Of a stretch of DNA of 60,502 nucleotides, positions 8,115 through 19,499 are shown piece by piece; positions within the stretch are counted from its first letter, which is position 1; every line of letters starts with the position of its first letter. The notes under the pieces are model-generated. The model made no database searches and had not been told where the DNA came from. It was given only the letters and a program-made list of their open reading frames with translations. The stretch is from an uncultured virus (IMG/VR IMGVR_UViG_2061766007_000271) (lineage: Duplodnaviria; Heunggongvirae; Uroviricota; Caudoviricetes). The DNA lies in IMG/VR virus record IMGVR_UViG_2061766007_000271, one strand, 5' to 3'. Both the position numbers and the translations under genes were made by a program.

Positions 8115-8900
8115 TCATGCATTCTGCTCAATGTACGAGCGAAGTTTCACAAGTGCGTTGTCCTTTATCTGGCGTACACGCTCTGCACTTAGGCGCAACG
8201 CCTCGCCCAGTTCCATGAGTGTCACACGCTCTCCGTTGAGGCTGAACAGACCGCTCACGATTGTGCGTTCCTTTTCGGTCAGCGAGCACAGCCCTTCCCT
8301 CATGAGGTCGAACATTTCATTCCGTTGCCTTGTGCCATAGGATTCATCCTCTTCCTCTTCGCTCACCTTGTCAAGGTAGGTGGTTTCGCTGTCATTGTCC
8401 ATCTTCGCATTCAGCGAGACCTTGGAGTTCCCGCCACTGCGCAGCACCGAAGCCACGATTTTCTTGTTGTAGCCACCGCATGCCTTGGCGATTTCGTCAG
8501 CCGTGGCTGATTCGCCGAGTTCCTCCTTCTTCCTCATGATGTTGCTTGTCCTGTTGTATTTGCCTATGGATTTGGCGATTGCCCCCGACAGGCTGGACAG
8601 GGTGTCCTTTATCTGATGGCGTATGTAGAACTGTGCGAATGTCCCGAACTTGGAACCCATTCCAGGCTTGAAGTTGTTGGCAGCCTGCACCAGACCGAGA
8701 TTGCCAGCACCGATGAGCTCCTCGACTTCAACTCCGTTGTTCTTGTACTGGTGTGCGATTTTCATTACAAGACCAAGATTTGACGAGATGAGTTCGTTGA
8801 TGGCGGTCTTGTCGCCTTCCTGTATCCTCTTCGCAAGTTCCTGCTCCTGCTCTTCAGTCAGCACCTCGTGCCTTTTCATTTCCTCTGCGTAGTTCAGCAT
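8115..8900 (-). CDS. RNA polymerase sigma factor, sigma70 RpoD/RpoH-like
   Basis: region 1.2 LTEEQEQELAKRI, region 2 NLGLVMKIA...GNLGLVQAANNFKP..GSKFGTFA, region 4 LSAERVRQIKDNALVKLR. Confidence 0.95.
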   Translation of the reverse strand: MLNYAEEMKRHEVLTEEQEQELAKRIQEGDKTAINELISSNLGLVMKIAHQYKNNGVEVEELIGAGNLGLVQAANNFKPGMGSKFGTFAQFYIRHQIKDTLSSLSGAIAKSIGKYNRTSNIMRKKEELGESATADEIAKACGGYNKKIVASVLRSGGNSKVSLNAKMDNDSETTYLDKVSEEEEDESYGTRQRNEMFDLMREGLCSLTEKERTIVSGLFSLNGERVTLMELGEALRLSAERVRQIKDNALVKLRSYIEQNA

Positions 8901-10923: not shown

Positions 10924-12231
10924 TCATATAAAATCATATAATTTTACATGACTTCGTTGCGAATNNNNNNNNNNNNNNNNNNNNNNNNNNNNNNNNNNNN
11001 NNNNNNNNNNNNNNNNNNNNNNNNNNNNNNNNNNNNNNNNNNNNNNNNNNNNNNNNNNNNNNNNNNNNNNNNNNNNNNNNNNNNNNNNNNNNNNNNNNNN
11101 NNNNNNNNNNNNNNNNNNNNNNNNNNNNNNNNNNNNNNNNNNNNNNNNNNNNNNNNNNNNNNNNNNNNNNNNNNNNNNNNNNNNNNNNNNNNNNNNNNNN
11201 NNNNNNNNNNNNNNNNNNNNNNNNNNNNNNNNNNNNNNNNNNNNNNNNNNNNNNNNNNNNNNNNNNNNNNNNNNNNNNNNNNNNNNNNNNNNNNNNNNNN
11301 NNNNNNNNNNNNNNNNNNNNNNNNNNNNNNNNNNNNNNNNNNNNNNNNNNNNNNNNNNNNNNNNNNNNNNNNNNNNNNNNNNNNNNNNNNNNNNNNNNNN
11401 NNNNNNNNNNNNNNNNNNNNNNNNNNNNNNNNNNNNNNNNNNNNNNNNNNNNNNNNNNNNNNNNNNNCTTGAAGCATAATTTTTCTTGCTGTCAAAATCA
11501 TTAAGTTCTTTTACATTATAAACGATTTTATCAATAATTTGATTTTCATCTTGTATGACAAGTGCTACATAATTTGGATTTAAATCAATTGAAGCAATTC
11601 TATTTTGAATTCCATGATAATCATGGTTGGCAAAGATAGATTCATCAAAAACAAGATAAATATAATCTTCGTCAATTTCAATTGTGAATTCAATTGATTT
11701 CTTGTTTTTATCATGCATTTCTTGCAATTTGAAAAGAAGATTTTCGTCTTGTTTTGAATATGAGTTCAATAAAATATCATAATGATGGCTTTTATCTCTT
11801 TTAAAAATGATTTTATGATTCTTTAAATCAATATCAAATTTTCTGTTTCCATTGTCATTTTTACTTCCTGTATATCTAATTGGAAGCAAAACATTTTTCT
11901 GAAATTGTTCTTGTGTGATATTCAATTTATTTCTTTGCAGAAAATTATATCTTCCACCAAATACCACTTTTCCACATGTTCCATCATCATTCTTATTAAC
12001 TTTATATATTGCCTTTGCCTTTAATACGGCTTGTTTAATAAATGAAGCGTCCAACAAATCAATATGATTCATATTTGTTTTTACAAGTTGCTCAATTATG
12101 GAATCTTTTAAAGAACCTTTTGAATCCACATATTTATTGAAAGCATAATGTATCACATGATTAAATTGAGCATAAAATTGCTTCAATTCATCATCAAAAA
12201 TAAAATTATGCTTTAATTTCTTCGTTATCAT
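10924..12231 (-). CDS. tnpB: IS607 TnpB RNA-guided endonuclease (gapped)
   Basis: RuvC-I IASIDLNPN; follows serine recombinase. Confidence 0.85.
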   Translation of the reverse strand: MITKKLKHNFIFDDELKQFYAQFNHVIHYAFNKYVDSKGSLKDSIIEQLVKTNMNHIDLLDASFIKQAVLKAKAIYKVNKNDDGTCGKVVFGGRYNFLQRNKLNITQEQFQKNVLLPIRYTGSKNDNGNRKFDIDLKNHKIIFKRDKSHHYDILLNSYSKQDENLLFKLQEMHDKNKKSIEFTIEIDEDYIYLVFDESIFANHDYHGIQNRIASIDLNPNYVALVIQDENQIIDKIVYNVKELNDFDSKKNYASXXXXXXXXXXXXXXXXXXXXXXXXXXXXXXXXXXXXXXXXXXXXXXXXXXXXXXXXXXXXXXXXXXXXXXXXXXXXXXXXXXXXXXXXXXXXXXXXXXXXXXXXXXXXXXXXXXXXXXXXXXXXXXXXXXXXXXXXXXXXXXXXXXXXXXXXXXXXXXXXXXXXXXXXXSQRSHVKLYDFI

Positions 12232-13958: not shown

Positions 13959-14273
13959 TTAGAACTCCGTGGTAATCACGTTGCCCATTTTCTTGTCAAG
14001 GAAGACCACTTCCACTTTGGGTGAAAGGTGGAACCCGAAAGAGGGACGGACTGTTGCGACTGTCCACTTCCTGCCGTCGCCACGCTCCTTGTCAGTCCAG
14101 TTGCGTGGGACTGCGATGGTAGCCACGACCTTGCCATTCACCGACTTGACAAGTCGGTTGTTGTCCCAGTCACGGTACACACGCACGTCATATTCCTTCT
14201 TGCTGAACATACGGCGGAAGCCTGTGGTTGCGAACAGGGTCTGGCAGTTGGCTGTAATGTCTTTCTTTGTCAT
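13959..14273 (-). CDS. basic hypothetical protein
   Basis: AAGGAGAG SD. Confidence 0.8.
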   Translation of the reverse strand: MTKKDITANCQTLFATTGFRRMFSKKEYDVRVYRDWDNNRLVKSVNGKVVATIAVPRNWTDKERGDGRKWTVATVRPSFGFHLSPKVEVVFLDKKMGNVITTEF

Positions 14274-14308
14274 AAGGCAAACTCTCCTTGCTAGGGGTGA
14301 AACTCCGT

Positions 14309-14385
14309 GCCGATTTTGTGTGAGTGGAGCAAGTGGCTCTTCCTCTCGGCACTCACATTATATGCCAGTCGGAACTGGATTTCAA
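14309..14385 (-). promoter_or_regulatory. class B promoter + leader hairpin
   Basis: consensus match. Confidence 0.85.
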
Positions 14386-14435
14386 CGATTTTTGAAGATT
14401 TTCTTGAAAATCCCCAAAAAAGCGAAATCCGATTT

Positions 14436-14479
14436 CCTTTCGGCACTCACATAATATGCCATTTCAAAACAAATTTCAA
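14436..14479 (-). promoter_or_regulatory. tandem class B promoter with truncated leader
   Basis: TTGAAA-N17-TATTAT then GCCGAAAGG, no ORF. Confidence 0.75.
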
Positions 14480-14608
14480 AGATGATTGAAGATTTTCCGT
14501 TTTTCCACGCATATGACCAGCCAGAATGATTGAATACCATCGCAGAATGAATGAAAACAAAAAAAGACTGGTCGCAACCTGCGACCAGTCCACAATTCAT
14601 GCCGTTGC

Positions 14609-14932
14609 CTACTGGTGGACGTCATACAGTTTGAGCCATGTGTCATCCTCGTATGCATCCAGTATCTCCTTCACCTGCTCGATGGTGTCTATTTCACGAT
14701 ACTGTCCATATTCCAGCACTGCACCACACTGCTCAAATACCGCCTGTGGATTGCGTTTGAACGCCTTCTTCACGTCCCCTATTGTGAGAAACTCGTCTAT
14801 CCCCTTGCGTCCTATCTTCTGCTTGGTTTCGTTGTCAAAGTCCACATAGTCCCATAGTTCGCCAGTCAGGGCATTCATTACAGATTCACAGTCCCTTGAA
14901 ATGCACATTACAGTAATATGGCTCATCTTCAC
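14609..14932 (-). CDS. hypothetical protein
   Basis: AAGGAGAG SD. Confidence 0.8.
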   Translation of the reverse strand: MKMSHITVMCISRDCESVMNALTGELWDYVDFDNETKQKIGRKGIDEFLTIGDVKKAFKRNPQAVFEQCGAVLEYGQYREIDTIEQVKEILDAYEDDTWLKLYDVHQ

Positions 14933-14956
14933 TCTCCTTGCTATGGTTCAGCCTAT

Positions 14957-15029
14957 GCCGAATTGAGGACAAGGCAAATGCCCTGCCTCTCGGCACTGAC
15001 ATTATATGCCAGTTGGACCTGGATTTCAA
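14957..15029 (-). promoter_or_regulatory. class B promoter + leader hairpin
   Basis: consensus match. Confidence 0.85.
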
Positions 15030-15103
15030 CAAAAACAGACAAAAAAATTAAAGGCAATTGGCGATGGCATGCATATTCAATCTTCACGGCAAATGCAGGA
15101 ATG

Positions 15104-15695
15104 AAAAATGCCCCTGCTGGAAAGGAAGATAACGGCTTCAATTCCAGCAGGGGCTACTCCACAACCCTTAACTAGGAGTAACAAATAAGGAGAAAATTTC
15201 CAAATGCCGATTTCGGTCTGCAAGGGGCTTACTCTCGGCTGATGTATTGCAGATGGCTGTCTTCCACCTGCGTTGTGATTTCCCTGCATTCACAACAATA
15301 TTGACTGCTTCAAGAGGAAGGGTCTGCCCCAAAGCACAGTCCTCTTCGGCGTGGCTGTAGAGAAAATTGACCAGCCTTTCCTTGTGAGGTCAAGCCGATG
15401 ACCTCATGGTGGCGAAACCCCGTTCTGCCAATTCCACCAGTGGCTCTTATTTGACTTCCCCATCATGGGGAAAGCCCTCCTTTTCAGCCACGAGGGACTG
15501 CATGCCCATCATTTTCGCCATCACCACGCATCGTCCCATGCATGGCAACCCCTGCTGGCACAAGACCCAAGAGAACAGGCAGTCCTGTGCCGAGACCCCG
15601 CCATTTGAATTGTGGAAAAGTGCAAACCACAACTGAACTCTGGCGTCATTCCTCGCACTAGGTCTGCAAGGCAATGTCGCAGGATTTCGTTTCAA
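15104..15695 (-). ncRNA. candidate large structured ncRNA (~590 nt)
   Basis: own promoter and terminator, no credible ORF, >=8 hairpins. Confidence 0.5.
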
Positions 15696-15700
15696 CGCCA

Positions 15701-15730
15701 ATAATATGGCGTGTGTTTAAGAAATTTCAA
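15701..15730 (-). promoter_or_regulatory. promoter TTGAAA-N18-TATTAT followed by TGGCGTT (as in class C)
   Basis: hybrid of class B -35 and class C start region. Confidence 0.6.
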
Positions 15731-15861
15731 ATCGCCATTCAAAAAAATTTTTCACATTGCCACCAGATTATTCAATCACCCATGGAATCAAGGCAATCAG
15801 TCTGTCAATGCGACAAGGATAATGAAATCAGTGCTGGCACTCGGATAAGGCATGGAGAAAA

Positions 15862-15909
15862 CCGATTAATCGGCACGAAACCGATTAATCGGTGCTTCAC
15901 CGATTATCG
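15862..15909. repeat. palindromic CCGATTAATCGG x2 + partial third, 19-bp period
   Basis: 15862-15873, 15881-15892, 15900-15909. Confidence 0.75.
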
Positions 15910-16040
15910 TGTGGACTGGATGATTCCAGTCCACGATTTTTCAATTGCATGGCACAAGCATGTATTCAATCACCTGACTGCTGACATGAAAACAAAAAAA
16001 TGCGGAGCCGAATGGCTCTGCATTCTGTCTCACGCTGGTG

Positions 16041-16232
16041 TCAGTCCACTTTCGTTTCCTGCACTTCCACTATTGCCTTGCATTCGCTTTTGAGAAGTTG
16101 TGCCTCCGTTATGTGCAGTTTGCCAGAGCAAAGCATCTCCAGCATCTTCTGCTCTGCATCTTCCTCGCTGTCGGCTTCTATCTGCCTTTCAAGGCAGTTC
16201 GTCTCAATGTACTGGACAATGTATTTCCTCAT
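16041..16232 (-). CDS. DpnD/PcfM-like small protein (IEADSEEDA)
   Basis: motif; GGAGGTG SD. Confidence 0.7.
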   Translation of the reverse strand: MRKYIVQYIETNCLERQIEADSEEDAEQKMLEMLCSGKLHITEAQLLKSECKAIVEVQETKVD

Positions 16233-16246
16233 TCCGTCCACCTCCG

Positions 16247-16576
16247 TTAAAGTCCAAAGCCATACTGCTTGTCGCCAGTCTGGACAATGCCGATGGTTTC
16301 GCAGGTGCTTATGAGGTCATCCATGCCAATGCCCCACTCGTGGAGTTGCTCCTTTAGGTCTCGGTCTGTCCAAGGCTCTTCAAAGTTCGGCACAAGCAGG
16401 GACGCCTGTATCCCGTCAACGCCCTCGCTCCTTTCGTGCTGTGGACGTGCGAGAAGCACATAAGGCACGTTGTCAATGCTGACACGCACCTCATTGCCCT
16501 CATACAGAAAGTCAAGAAGTTCCTCTTCGCTGGCGAAGGTGTAAAGTTCCGTAAAGTAACTGGTGATTTTTTCCAT
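16247..16576 (-). CDS. acidic hypothetical protein
   Basis: start MEKITSY after leader. Confidence 0.75.
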   Translation of the reverse strand: MEKITSYFTELYTFASEEELLDFLYEGNEVRVSIDNVPYVLLARPQHERSEGVDGIQASLLVPNFEEPWTDRDLKEQLHEWGIGMDDLISTCETIGIVQTGDKQYGFGL

Positions 16577-16607
16577 TGTTGCTCTCATGTCAAGGGGTTG
16601 CGTCTCT

Positions 16608-16680
16608 GCCGAACTGGGGAGTGGCAGATGTGCCATCCTCTCGGCACATACATTATATGCCAGTCCAAGACCGATTTCAA
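16608..16680 (-). promoter_or_regulatory. class B promoter + leader hairpin
   Basis: consensus match. Confidence 0.85.
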
Positions 16681-16957
16681 CGAAATCAATGAAAAAATCC
16701 TGTGGCACAAATATATTCAATGCATGTGGGAAAATAACAACTAACAAAAAATCTATCAAAATCTACAATTTTCTGCTAAAATCTCCTCTTTGAAAAAAAT
16801 TGATTTAACTTTTTGTTTATATAGTATAATATAGTGTAAGAACAAGATTTTTCAGTGATTGATTGCGCCTTTCATTGAAGATAAACCATATTAGATTTAG
16901 ACCTCCTTTTGAGTGATGGCGCAATCATCCTCATCTGGAGGTTTTCTTTTTCCAGAA

Positions 16958-19499
16958 ATGAAGCAAACAAGCAGATACAGCAAGAGTTTTTATAGTGATG
17001 GATTGACTGATAAGAAGTATCAGGAAATCCATAAACTTGCTGTTTCTATTCAAAGTGCTAAGAACAAGATTTCTGGAATTGTCAATCAGGACTTGTTCAA
17101 ATATCTGGAAATNNNNNNNNNNNNNNNNNNNNNNNNNNNNNNNNNNNNNNNNNNNNNNNNNNNNNNNNNNNNNNNNNNNNNNNNNNNNNNNNNNNNNNNN
17201 NNNNNNNNNNNNNNNNNNNNNNNNNNNNNNNNNNNNNNNNNNNNNNNNNNNNNNNNNNNNNNNNNNNNNNNNNNNNNNNNNNNNNNNNNNNNNNNNNNNN
17301 NNNNNNNNGGTCATTAATTCCTTTGCAAACATCTCGTGGCATCTCAAGGATAGGAAGAAAATGACGATTCCGATGAAATACTCGAAGGATTTTCATGGTG
17401 AATTGAAGAGATATACCAACGGTACTGATACAGCATATACAATTTGTCTGGAAGATAATAATCAAATCAGAATGATTCTGTCATACGAAGATGAGCGAGA
17501 ATTTCCTGACGCAAGAAATAGAATCGTTGGTATAGATGTCAATTCCAAACACAATCTTATGACCTGCTCGAATGGATATGAGATAGATTTTGACAGGGAA
17601 CTAGTAGAAGAATTATCCAGAGAACTCAAAAAGATAGATGAATTAAAGAAAAGAAATTCAAATTATGAGATTGGTAAAAGGAAACAAAACAAGATAAATC
17701 ATCTGAACAGGGAGCTTATTTCTAAAATCAGAGAGGAAATAGCGAATCTTTGCAAAAGATTAAAGAAGCATCATTATCATCATGCAGTCTTTGAGGATTT
17801 GGATAATCAGTTTGGTTCTACATTTGCAAAAGACGAGAATGACTTAAATTACAATAGAAGATTGAGGATTTTACATCTTGGCGATTTGAAAAATGAATTT
17901 GAGCATATAGCAAGGAAATATGGAATAGCAGTTTCTCTGGTACAAAGTTTCTACACCAGTCAGACTTGTCCTAAATGTGGTTGCGTTGATAAAGAGAATA
18001 GAAAAGACCAGGAGCATTTCGAGTGCGTGGATTGTGGCTATAAAGCAAACGCAGACTTGAATGCTTCCAGAAACATCAGAAACAGAGTTGTCCAAGCAGT
18101 GCTTTGTGACTCGCTTCTCAAGAAGGACTNNNNNNNNNNGTCGAAGCACATGTTTCAGCAAGCGTTATGTGATATTGCAAAAGAGCAAAAGATAAGCAAT
18201 CATTTTATTTGGCAATTGTTGGATGATGTCTATGTATCCTATCAAAACAAATTCAATAATGTCAAGAGAAGACTAAAATTCCAGCATATCAGCGAATATC
18301 ATTTCAATTACTACAAGAGAAGTGGAAAAACAAAGAATGGAAGAGAATATCATTCAGGTGATTTCAAGAGCATCACAATCAAGCATGATGAAACACCTTT
18401 GAGCATTACTCTTACATATCTAGCCAGATACGGCTATTTTGGAATCGTGGATTATCTTCTTGAAAAGTTTGTTCAGGAAACAAATCCTGATAAAGAGAAA
18501 TTCTATGCTGATGTCCTTGACACGATTTACAAGTTTGGATTCACTAGACTGTTTGCCATTGCAATGAACAAAAGAAACAGAATAATCAAGCATTATTCAG
18601 AACGTCCTATTGAATTCCAGTCATTGAGTTTCAGAGGAAGAAGCCGTCTTTCTGAAGATATTGTTTCCATGAATGAAAATATGAAATCNNNNNNNNNNNN
18701 NNNNNNNNNNNNNNNNNNNNNNNNNNNNNNNNNNNNNNNNNNNNNNNNNNNNNNNNNNNNNNNNNNNNNNNNNNNNNNNNNNNNNNNNNNNNNNNNNNNN
18801 NNNNNNNNNNNNNNNNNNNNNNNNNNNNNNNNNNNNNNNNNNNNNNNNNNNNNNNNNNNNNNNNNNNNNNNNNNNNNNNNNNNNNNNNNNNNNNNNNNNN
18901 NNNNNNNNNNNNNNNNNNNNNNNNNNNNNNNNNNNNNNNNNNNNNNNNNNNNNNNNNNNNNNNNNNNNNNNNNNNNNNNNNNNNNNNNNNNNNNNNNNNN
19001 NNNNNNNNNNNNNNNNNNNNNNNNNNNNNNNNNNNNNNNNNNNNNNNNNNNNNNNNNNNNNNNNNNNNNNNNNNNNNNNNNNNNNNNNNNNNNNNNNNNN
19101 NNNNNNNNNNNNNNNNNNNNNNNNNNNNNNNNNNNNNNNNNNNNNNNNNNNNNNNNNNNNNNNNNNNNNNNNNNNNNNNNNNNNNNNNNNNNNNNNNNNN
19201 NNNNNNNNNNNNNNNNNNNNNNNNNNNNNNNNNNNNNNNNNNNNNNNNNNNNNNNNNNNNNNNNNNNNNNNNNNNNNNNNNNNNNNNNNNNNNNNNNNNN
19301 NNNNNNNNNNNNNNNNNNNNNNNNNNNNNNNNNNNNNNNNNNNNNNNNNNNNNNNNNNNNNNNNNNNNNNNNNNNNNNNNNNNNNNNNNNNNNNNNNNNN
19401 NNNNNNGAAAATTCCAGTGCGTTCATTCCCAAAGTCAATTCGAAGGAAAAGGTGAGGGAAATACTGGAAAGGTTGCGTAACAGCTTGATTTGTGTATAA
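16958..19499 (+). CDS. tnpB: TnpB/Cas12f-like RuvC nuclease (~540 aa visible; contigs probably mis-ordered)
   Basis: GIDVN, VFEDL, YTSQTCPKCG..CVDCG, ADLNASRNI. Confidence 0.9.

Follow-up and report, generated by a model that had tools for sequence, protein, structure and literature searches.

A candidate stand-alone gene for a stable, folded non-coding RNA among the early gene cassettes of an uncultured huge phage from the cattle gut

The IMG/VR record IMGVR_UViG_2061766007_000271, a 60,502-nucleotide (nt) stretch of DNA referred to here as the window, belongs to an uncultured huge phage from the cattle gut. On its minus strand, positions 15104-15730 form a self-contained unit in which about 590 nt that lack usable coding capacity lie between a promoter and a terminator. 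A first-pass annotation of the sequence had proposed a non-coding RNA (ncRNA) of about 590 nt for it. It is probable (about 0.7) that this locus is a stand-alone gene for a stable, highly folded ncRNA placed among early small-gene cassettes, and that it is a functional ncRNA gene at all is likewise probable. A sigma-70-type promoter at 15730-15701 would start a transcript of about 590 nt, which would end at a strong intrinsic terminator at 15154-15104; both ends would then be trimmed back to the first stable helices, namely the P1 hairpin at 15676 and, at 15224, a long-range helix, and the remaining core of about 453 nt would accumulate. The RNA belongs to a new family, comparable in kind to ROOL and GOLLD.

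Contigs assembled from RNA libraries carry much of this reading. A run search with a 1651-nt query listed 20 runs from 13 studies, 10 of them RNA libraries, each of which holds 12-17% of the query words. Contigs from one DNA run (X3) and three RNA runs (X5, X10 and X12), belonging to three studies, were aligned to positions 14000-16900. X5 has one whole contig of 453 nt (15224-15676), X12 one of 443 nt (15234-15676), and X10 two, at 15224-15462 and 15464-15676; the RNA contigs are 98-99% identical to the window and none of them runs on into unlike sequence. The end at 15676 is common to all three RNA runs and the end at 15224 to two of the three. The suspicion that the locus might not be transcribed was thus not borne out, RNA contigs of 15224/34-15676 being present in three studies, and because these contigs cover nothing beyond 15224(34)-15676, the accumulating species is therefore about 453 nt long rather than about 590 nt. 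The earlier proposal holds for the non-coding transcription unit and has to be shortened for the RNA that accumulates. The DNA run X3 covers all 30 bins of the 2.9-kb stretch, in a variant form whose divergence ranges, piece by piece, over about 1-10%, and the flanks have no contigs from RNA runs except one of 210 nt from X10 lying partly on 14085-14249. Since the stretch examined included both flanking genes, evenly spread carry-over of DNA is an unlikely source of the RNA contigs; the empty flanks were used against such carry-over alone and were not counted as evidence that the flanking genes are silent. Nor do the contigs look like those of a circular or permuted RNA, as they are collinear with the window from first to last base and have no back-joint, although rare forms can escape contigs.

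Both signals that delimit the transcript, each claimed in the first-pass annotation, were found where it had placed them. The promoter at 15730-15701 reads TTGAAA-18-TATTAT (the CCATATTAT type) and agrees with the consensus at 10 of 12 positions. The extended pattern TTGAM-N16-CCATATTAT is found a single time in the window, where 0.06 occurrences would be expected; two related huge phages have it 17 and 21 times, and the reversed control pattern has 0 hits there. Of 29 promoters of this type in the relatives, 8 are followed on the same strand by transfer RNA (tRNA) genes, one of these 8 with a transfer-messenger RNA (tmRNA) ahead of the first tRNA; behind the rest, within 700 nt, comes an open reading frame (ORF) of at least 40 amino acids (aa) led by a Shine-Dalgarno (SD) sequence. 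With a predicted start about 7 nt past the -10 hexamer, a 5′ leader of about 20 nt (15697-15677), absent from the RNA contigs, would precede the core. The 13-base-pair (bp) terminator stem, GCCCCUGCUGGAA/UUCCAGCAGGGGC (15154-15142 with 15122-15110), is recovered at a pairing probability (P) of 1.00 and forms, with a nested 4-bp stem and the AUUUUU that follows, the intrinsic terminator; a simple terminator scan missed this stem because its loop is longer than 8 nt.

The predicted fold is strand-biased. On the minus strand the 453-nt core folds at -184.1 kcal/mol, with a z-score of -4.20 (60 shuffles), and on the plus strand at -147.2 kcal/mol with a z-score of -1.40. The 597-nt stretch has a z-score of -4.26, and the 533-nt stretch without the terminator has -2.99 on the minus and -1.39 on the plus strand. 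Control tiles of the window, 15 of 20 planned, on both strands and with 20 shuffles for each of the 30 values, have a mean z of -1.22 (standard deviation 1.51, minimum -3.99), and the core has both the lowest z and the lowest energy among the 32 sequences folded.

An ornate structure is predicted for the core (15676-15224, minus strand). It begins with P1, the 5′-terminal hairpin at 15676-15647 (CAUU/AAUG and CCUUGCA/UGCGAGG, with loop GACCUAG), and with the P2 hairpin at 15644-15600 (GCCA/UGGC and AGUUGUGG/CCACAAUU), each at P 0.97-0.99. A long-range closing helix would join its 5′ strand GGGGU.CUCGGC (15599-15589) to its 3′ strand GCCGAG..GCCCC (15239-15224), the last base of which is the 3′ end of the RNA contigs, with P 0.99 for CUCGGC/GCCGAG and 0.96 for GGG/CCC; a caveat is that the 594-nt primary-transcript fold pairs GCCCC with a different GGGGU, at 15552-15548, and that the minimum-free-energy structure differs between the 453-nt and 594-nt versions. 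The hairpin GGCACAGGAC/GUCUUGUGCC (15591-15557), with a 15-nt pyrimidine-rich loop, UGCCUGUUCUCUUGG, has P 0.98 in the primary-transcript fold and takes an alternative pairing in the core fold. Further elements are the helix GUGGCU/AGCCAC (15491-86 / 15445-40, P 0.99), the hairpin UGAGGUCA/UGACCUCA (15406-15385, P 0.98), and two adjoining hairpins, GUUGUGA/UCACAAC (15296-15272) and GCAGGUGG/CCAUCUGC (15271-15249), with P 0.97 and 1.00 for the pair. The contig ends coincide with the foot of P1, whose first base is 15676, and with the last pair of the closing helix at 15224, and ends at the feet of helices are what exonucleolytic trimming of a folded RNA would be expected to produce.

Most of the structural detail given in the first-pass annotation survives this treatment. 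Six of its eight stems have a mean P of at least 0.79 in the partition function of the mature or primary RNA, namely UUGUGG/CCACAA, GGCACAGGAC/GUCUUGUGCC, UGAGGUCA/UGACCUCA, GUUGUGA/UCACAAC, GCAGGUGG/CCAUCUGC, and UUCCCCA/UGGGGAA in its CCCC/GGGG part, while GGGAC/GUCCC and AAGAGGA/UCCUCUU were not recovered. The 11-nt repeat CCTTGCAGACC, said to lie near both ends, is exact at 15671-15661 (copy 1, CCUUGCAGACC, which lies in P1) and at 15225-15215, and GCAGACC is present at 15327-15321; at no more than one mismatch CCTTGCAGACC has 6 matches in the window against 1.25 expected.

Natural variation among the runs is unevenly distributed along the RNA. Counting listed rows, with 49 further rows outside the counts, 12 of 18 substitutions and all three indels inside the RNA fall in 15406-15503 (98 of 453 nt), which makes the outer 5′ and 3′ domains the conserved parts. 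This variable central domain (15503-15406, minus strand) holds an SD-like AAGGAGGG at 15481-15474, the CCCC/GGGG hairpin and a 20-codon ORF. In robust helices, four C>U changes opposite G (15467, 15469, 15487 and 15592) keep the minus-sense pairs as G.U and become A.C mismatches in the plus sense; the one at 15592 is the closing-helix variant of X3, whose pair is kept as U.G, and the change at 15475, from G.U to A-U, also keeps the minus-sense pairing. These pair-keeping variants favour the minus strand, far short of a covariation test as they come from four near-identical variants.

Coding signal is missing from the locus. Scored by a codon table derived from 17 of the window's long ORFs, all six frames lie between -0.32 and +0.04 bits per codon, and the 11 neighbouring small cassette genes, which were outside the training set, all score 0.19-0.51 in frame. 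The ORFs of 84, 76, 70 and 54 aa in the locus have -0.16 to -0.03 bits per codon. Among seven ORF-like segments, none has a match in PHROGs and one has a single weak match in Pfam (E 0.15). Coding conservation of the 84-aa ORF (-0.03) would have spoken for a protein gene, and no real homologue was found: a word-index search returned none, and among 1.84 billion representative proteins there are two matches at E <= 0.001, one over 18 residues (44% identity) within a 4064-aa protein and the other a 30-aa fragment, identical to the ORF's own C-terminus, on one contig. In X3 this ORF also carries two separate 1-nt deletions, at 15499 and 15501, and its TTG start (15701-15699) directly adjoins the -10 hexamer and precedes the point where transcription is predicted to begin. 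The earlier statement that the region has no SD-led ORF needs qualification, since AAGGAGGG-N8-AUGAUG opens a 20-codon ORF at 15466-15404; even so, variants alter its first AUG (15464, in X3 and X12), shift its frame (deletion 15431, in X3 and X10) and remove its stop (15406, in X5, X10 and X12). Recoding was considered for the third minus frame, which has only TGA stops (five) and no TAA or TAG, and was rejected: the residues of this frame do not look like protein, it scores 0.04 bits per codon, and a lack of TAA and TAG is unremarkable when each of the other five frames has just 2-4 of them.

As the first-pass annotation had said, the RNA cannot be assigned to a catalogued family. Rfam 15 searched with cmscan gives nothing at the gathering score over the whole window and no ROOL or GOLLD match at E <= 10 over 1201 and 601 bases; the rows at E up to 10 are at chance level (FTX_2 0.68, sroC 2.1, RybB 4.7-9.4, Rhino_CRE 8.9). 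Covariance models of GOLLD, OLE, HEARO/omega-RNA, raiA, 6S, RNase P, group I and II introns and self-cleaving ribozymes are likewise unmatched. No homologue was found among INPHARED phages (blastn with 751 and 3101 bases), among PLSDB plasmids, or in IMG/VR with exact patterns. Degenerate six-pattern scans of IMG/VR (stop-free frames, 3′ and 5′ halves) gave one locus, L044, rejected as a chance match of 27-33 nt in unrelated GC-rich DNA, and the repeat-spacing pattern CCTTGCAGACC-N420-450-CCTTGCAGACC gave 14 loci, none matching the candidate over more than 22 nt. Thirteen of these are 9-nt-periodic CCTTG-type repeats, read, in untranslated form, as antisense Gly-X-Y collagen-like genes, and the remaining one, L048, is AT-rich non-repeat DNA. 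Exact and six-pattern scans of GTDB genome contigs found only two chance matches, in a Desulfobulbus metagenome-assembled genome and in Sphingomonas. A covariance model was made for the 5′ 177 nt from this one sequence with the structure predicted for it; in the window it recovers its own source and no other match, and in the relatives none at all. Keyword searches of open-access text found no paper that describes an RNA like this from jumbo or rumen phages.

In its size, its phage context and its rumen origin, the window RNA comes closest to ROOL and GOLLD among known kinds. ROOL was first found in cow rumen data and averages 581 nt, and both RNAs often occur near tRNA genes, in prophages or phages (PMC5737381); homo-oligomeric cages are reported for both (PMC12286853). 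Like them, the window RNA is several hundred nt long, phage-borne and a stand-alone non-coding unit. Set beside the ROOL figures, it comes from bovine gut runs, with about 590 nt in the primary transcript and about 453 nt in the core, and several hairpins and a long-range closing helix are predicted for it from a single sequence. Unlike ROOL (RF03087), it has no covariance-model match even at E 10, so that membership fails on the only defining feature that can be tested, and the 60.5-kb window around it contains no tRNA gene, where ROOL and GOLLD often lie near such genes. The folded core may, tentatively and by analogy with these two, act as an RNA, as a scaffold or decoy in host takeover. 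The locus would supply an RNA without a catalogued relative, located in the host-takeover region of a huge phage and recoverable from public rumen RNA data as a discrete molecule, which makes it a defined and experimentally tractable example of about 450 nt. Large stable protein-free phage RNAs such as ROOL and GOLLD are among the least understood bacterial RNAs, with few families catalogued.

Several observations weigh against a stable, functional ncRNA. Assembled contigs give neither strand, true ends nor expression level, and ends shared by two studies at places where the DNA continues are a weak hint of real ends. One control tile has a fold z as low as -3.99. Two variants break predicted pairs, at 15495 in a 3-bp helix and at 15406 in a terminal pair, and divergence of X3 inside the RNA, about 1-4%, is not clearly below that of all flanks (1.4-9.7%). 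The two related huge phages are without the RNA, their best BLAST match having E 0.007 over 27 nt, so that it is lineage-specific and dispensable for the clade, and as no diverged homologue was found there is neither covariation nor evidence of long-term selection. Finally, the 3′ tail looks like recycled cassette sequence, which would fit a young or decaying element.

That tail also underlies the alternative that survives best, in which the RNA regulates the phage's own early genes. The locus fills one slot of an array of 27 near-identical strong promoters (TTGAAATCC...TGGCATATAATG) on the same, minus, strand between 6853 and 34813. In 22 of the 27 a conserved leader follows, with a GCCGAGAGG...CCUCAAUUCGGC stem-loop, then the ribosome-binding-site (RBS) motif CAACCCCUUGACAGGAG and then a small ORF; this leader looks like a regulatory or stability element common to early mRNAs. 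Pyrimidine-rich segments of the RNA, namely the tail core at 15186-15160 and the loop and 3′ arm of the hairpin at 15591-15557, would pair with the CAACCCCUUGACAGGAG motif in the 5′ untranslated region (UTR) of these mRNAs, blocking translation or triggering cleavage, and the different promoter type of the RNA would time the switch. A profile of the 22 GCCGAGAG-leader cassettes matches the plus strand at 15135-15194 (E 0.0026 in a 1.8-kb search), so that the transcript carries the antisense of the shared CAACCC..AGGAG ribosome-binding region. Against 24 cassette sites the 27-nt core of the tail has a mean duplex energy of -17.8 kcal/mol. Shuffling this core brings the figure to -12.0 +/- 1.3, with 0 of 300 shuffles as low as the real sequence, or, when CUCC is kept, to -14.1 +/- 1.4, with 5 of 300 as low. 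Of 250 natural 27-mers taken in minus sense from the window itself, 2 attain -17.77. Values of -18.0 to -19.2 belong to a second region, this one within the stable core, in the 27-nt windows that begin at 15580-15562.

The tail of the primary transcript (15223-15155), missing from the RNA contigs, which end at 15224, contains copy 2 of the repeat (15225-15215), the anti-SD-like UUCUCCUU that had been noted near the 3′ end (15194-15187) and the pairing core itself, and a GCCGA...UCGGC element resembling the cassette 5′ UTR extends into it (15239-15205). Tested whole, its 69 nt against long UTRs give a non-significant -29.1 versus -28.0 +/- 2.3. As this test is not significant and the tail is absent from the contigs, antisense action is kept as the main rival or add-on and not as the best explanation, a possible but doubtful reading. 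Complementarity to a ribosome-binding region common to many mRNAs of the same genome is what the RNA has in common with trans-acting antisense and anti-SD RNAs, and it offers a concrete, if sequence-based, hint of function; unlike in those, its best antisense segment lies in a tail without accumulation and the pairing is predicted. Typical base-pairing small RNAs are much smaller than the window RNA, and a folded core of 450 nt far exceeds the needs of antisense action. The antisense match could, moreover, be the relic of an inverted cassette fragment. Both ideas may be combined in a new class of large phage RNA, itself unlikely, with two working parts derived from a single precursor: a core of about 450 nt, bounded by helices, would become abundant in rumen communities, and exposed pyrimidine-rich segments, including the excised tail, would pair with the RBS of early mRNAs. 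If so, the core would possibly be a scaffold, a decoy or a self-assembling particle like ROOL and GOLLD, and a single RNA gene would help to switch the phage out of its early programme by acting on some two dozen mRNAs.

The inverted fragment can also be taken as a sign that the locus is decayed or rearranged cassette debris, still transcribed and persisting through its tight folding without a function. On the plus strand, positions 15205-15243 hold an inverted cassette-like leader (hairpin, CACAACCCTTAACTAGGAG and AAGGAGA-N10-ATG) that opens only 12 codons, which gives the impression that the RNA gene took over an inverted piece of cassette for its tail and terminator. The inverted 5′ UTR/RBS in the 3′ part (E 0.0026), a weak sense match to the GCCGAGAG...UCGGC stem-loop (E 0.49), the lack of the RNA in the two related phages and a central domain that is variable and has indels would all suit decay. 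Debris of this kind is nevertheless improbable: no frame keeps a codon bias and no segment has protein similarity, neither the promoter nor the terminator is damaged, none of the other sequences among the 32 has a stronger predicted fold, the contigs have discrete ends at helix boundaries, and the RNA appears in libraries of several studies at 98-99% identity.

Because the contigs are blind to strand, the RNA might instead be a plus-strand transcript, antisense to the proposed gene, that would start behind the cassette-like 5′ UTR at 15135-15194 with its ATG at 15205. A leader with AAGGAGA-N10-ATG and a terminator-like site at 15910-15935 are indeed at hand on that strand. Quite unlikely as it is, this reading meets no promoter in 14915-15250, the only match being a weak one (9/12) at 14885-14914, and an ATG that opens just 12 codons; folding is weaker than on the minus strand (z -1.40 against -4.20), helices of the plus sense would be disrupted by four variants, and the contigs stop at 15676, 234 nt short of the terminator-like site.

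Descent from a tRNA or tmRNA-type gene is still less likely, even though promoters of this type precede tRNA, tmRNA and tRNA-like genes in the relatives. ARAGORN finds no tRNA and no tmRNA in the 60.5-kb window, tRNA and tmRNA covariance models reach nothing at E 10 on the stretch, and the RNA has neither a tRNA-like domain nor a tag reading frame nor a match to a tmRNA model. The same Rfam tmRNA model finds tmRNAs in the relatives, so the method works on this phage group. Each relative has a tmRNA gene in its tRNA region; these tmRNAs are about 396 nt long in both (L005 1758-2153, minus; L013 780-1175, plus; L033 1830-2225, plus), match RF00023 at 56.5-57.7 bits and are not called by ARAGORN. 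In the relative G002 the tmRNA lies in a tRNA cluster behind a CCATATTAT-type promoter and fills most of the 515-nt gap between promoter and tRNA. The window RNA is like the phage tmRNA and tRNA genes of the relatives in being a stable RNA gene of 350-450 nt with, as in G002, the same promoter type, and unlike them in sitting among early protein cassettes rather than in a tRNA region.

The relatives also have a sub-threshold class II tRNA-like element (L003 1450-1531, minus; L007 about 1498-1579, plus; Rfam tRNA 24 bits, E 0.011), whose anticodon loop is shortened and whose acceptor has mismatches; two tRNA-Ser genes follow just downstream. It lies last in a transcript of about 340 nt, free of ORFs and with a promoter of its own, which may be another uncatalogued RNA of these phages. 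Positions 15443-15417 of the window RNA resemble the class II D-arm of this element (89% and 86% over 27 nt, E 0.007 and 0.21), and the element, too, has a promoter of the type seen at the window RNA about 265 nt ahead of it. The window RNA has, however, no T-arm or acceptor pairing, the complement of the D-stem is lost through a 1-nt gap, and variants alter the 27-nt motif itself (15439, 15432 and the deletion at 15431). A small protein as the product, be it from the 84-aa ORF, the 20-codon ORF with its strong SD AAGGAGGG 8 nt ahead of AUGAUG at 15466 or the 12-codon plus-strand ORF, is hardly credible in view of the codon scores of -0.16 to -0.03 for the four long ORFs (84, 76, 70 and 54 aa), the lack of homologues, the variants that ruin the short ORF and frameshift the 84-aa one, and a TTG that precedes the predicted transcription start.

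With a stand-alone ncRNA gene as the preferred reading, its setting can be described. The window codes for a sigma-70-family factor (8115-8900), a LysM cell-wall hydrolase, a 5′-3′ exonuclease and a protein with a TnpB/Cas12f-like domain. The RNA locus does not resemble an early protein-coding cassette, having a promoter of another type than their class-A promoters and no frame above 0.04 bits per codon, and shares with the protein cassettes only its terminator and upstream motifs. The latter are GGTGATTGAATAA at 15780-15768 and an A/T tract at about 15753-15741, on the minus strand and laid out as at other early promoters; together (15741-15780) they match the cassette profile weakly (nhmmer, E 0.72), and a second copy of the GATTGAATA motif at 15974-15952 matches it with E 0.021. 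Relatives of a neighbouring 105-aa protein, with 69% and 61% identity, lie on the two IMG/VR contigs of the related huge phages, which are 255,236 and 329,058 bp long, both with terminal repeats. The homologue in the 329-kb relative is split over two frames (L002 3970-4307), by a frameshift or an assembly error. A JGI metagenome scan, with this 105-aa protein as its only query, gave a single locus at 41% identity and was uninformative.

A plus-strand TnpB/Cas12f1-like ORF, at about 17037-19499 of the window, interrupts the minus-strand cassette array. It has a TNB zinc-finger domain (E 1.8e-18) and a sub-threshold OrfB_IS605 match (E 0.002); it is partly masked as N, and a long N-spanning frame extends downstream past the matched TnpB domains. 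Another minus-strand ORF, of 435 aa (10924-12231), has no match in Pfam or PHROGs, and the 453-nt control tile 11500-11952 inside it has a G+C content of about 24%, against 40-58% in the other control tiles; this low-G+C stretch is possibly recently acquired DNA.

Upstream of the RNA promoter, at a distance of 130-190 bp, a gene-free slot flanked by two GATTGAATA motifs contains a 12-bp palindrome, CCGATTAATCGG, in exact copies at 15862-15873 and 15881-15892, 19 bp apart, and in a third, half-degenerate copy at about 15897-15907. The adjoining hairpin at 15910-15935 reads as a plus-strand terminator, and strain X3 diverges across the palindrome region. From its sequence arrangement, the palindrome cluster may be an operator or protein-binding site.

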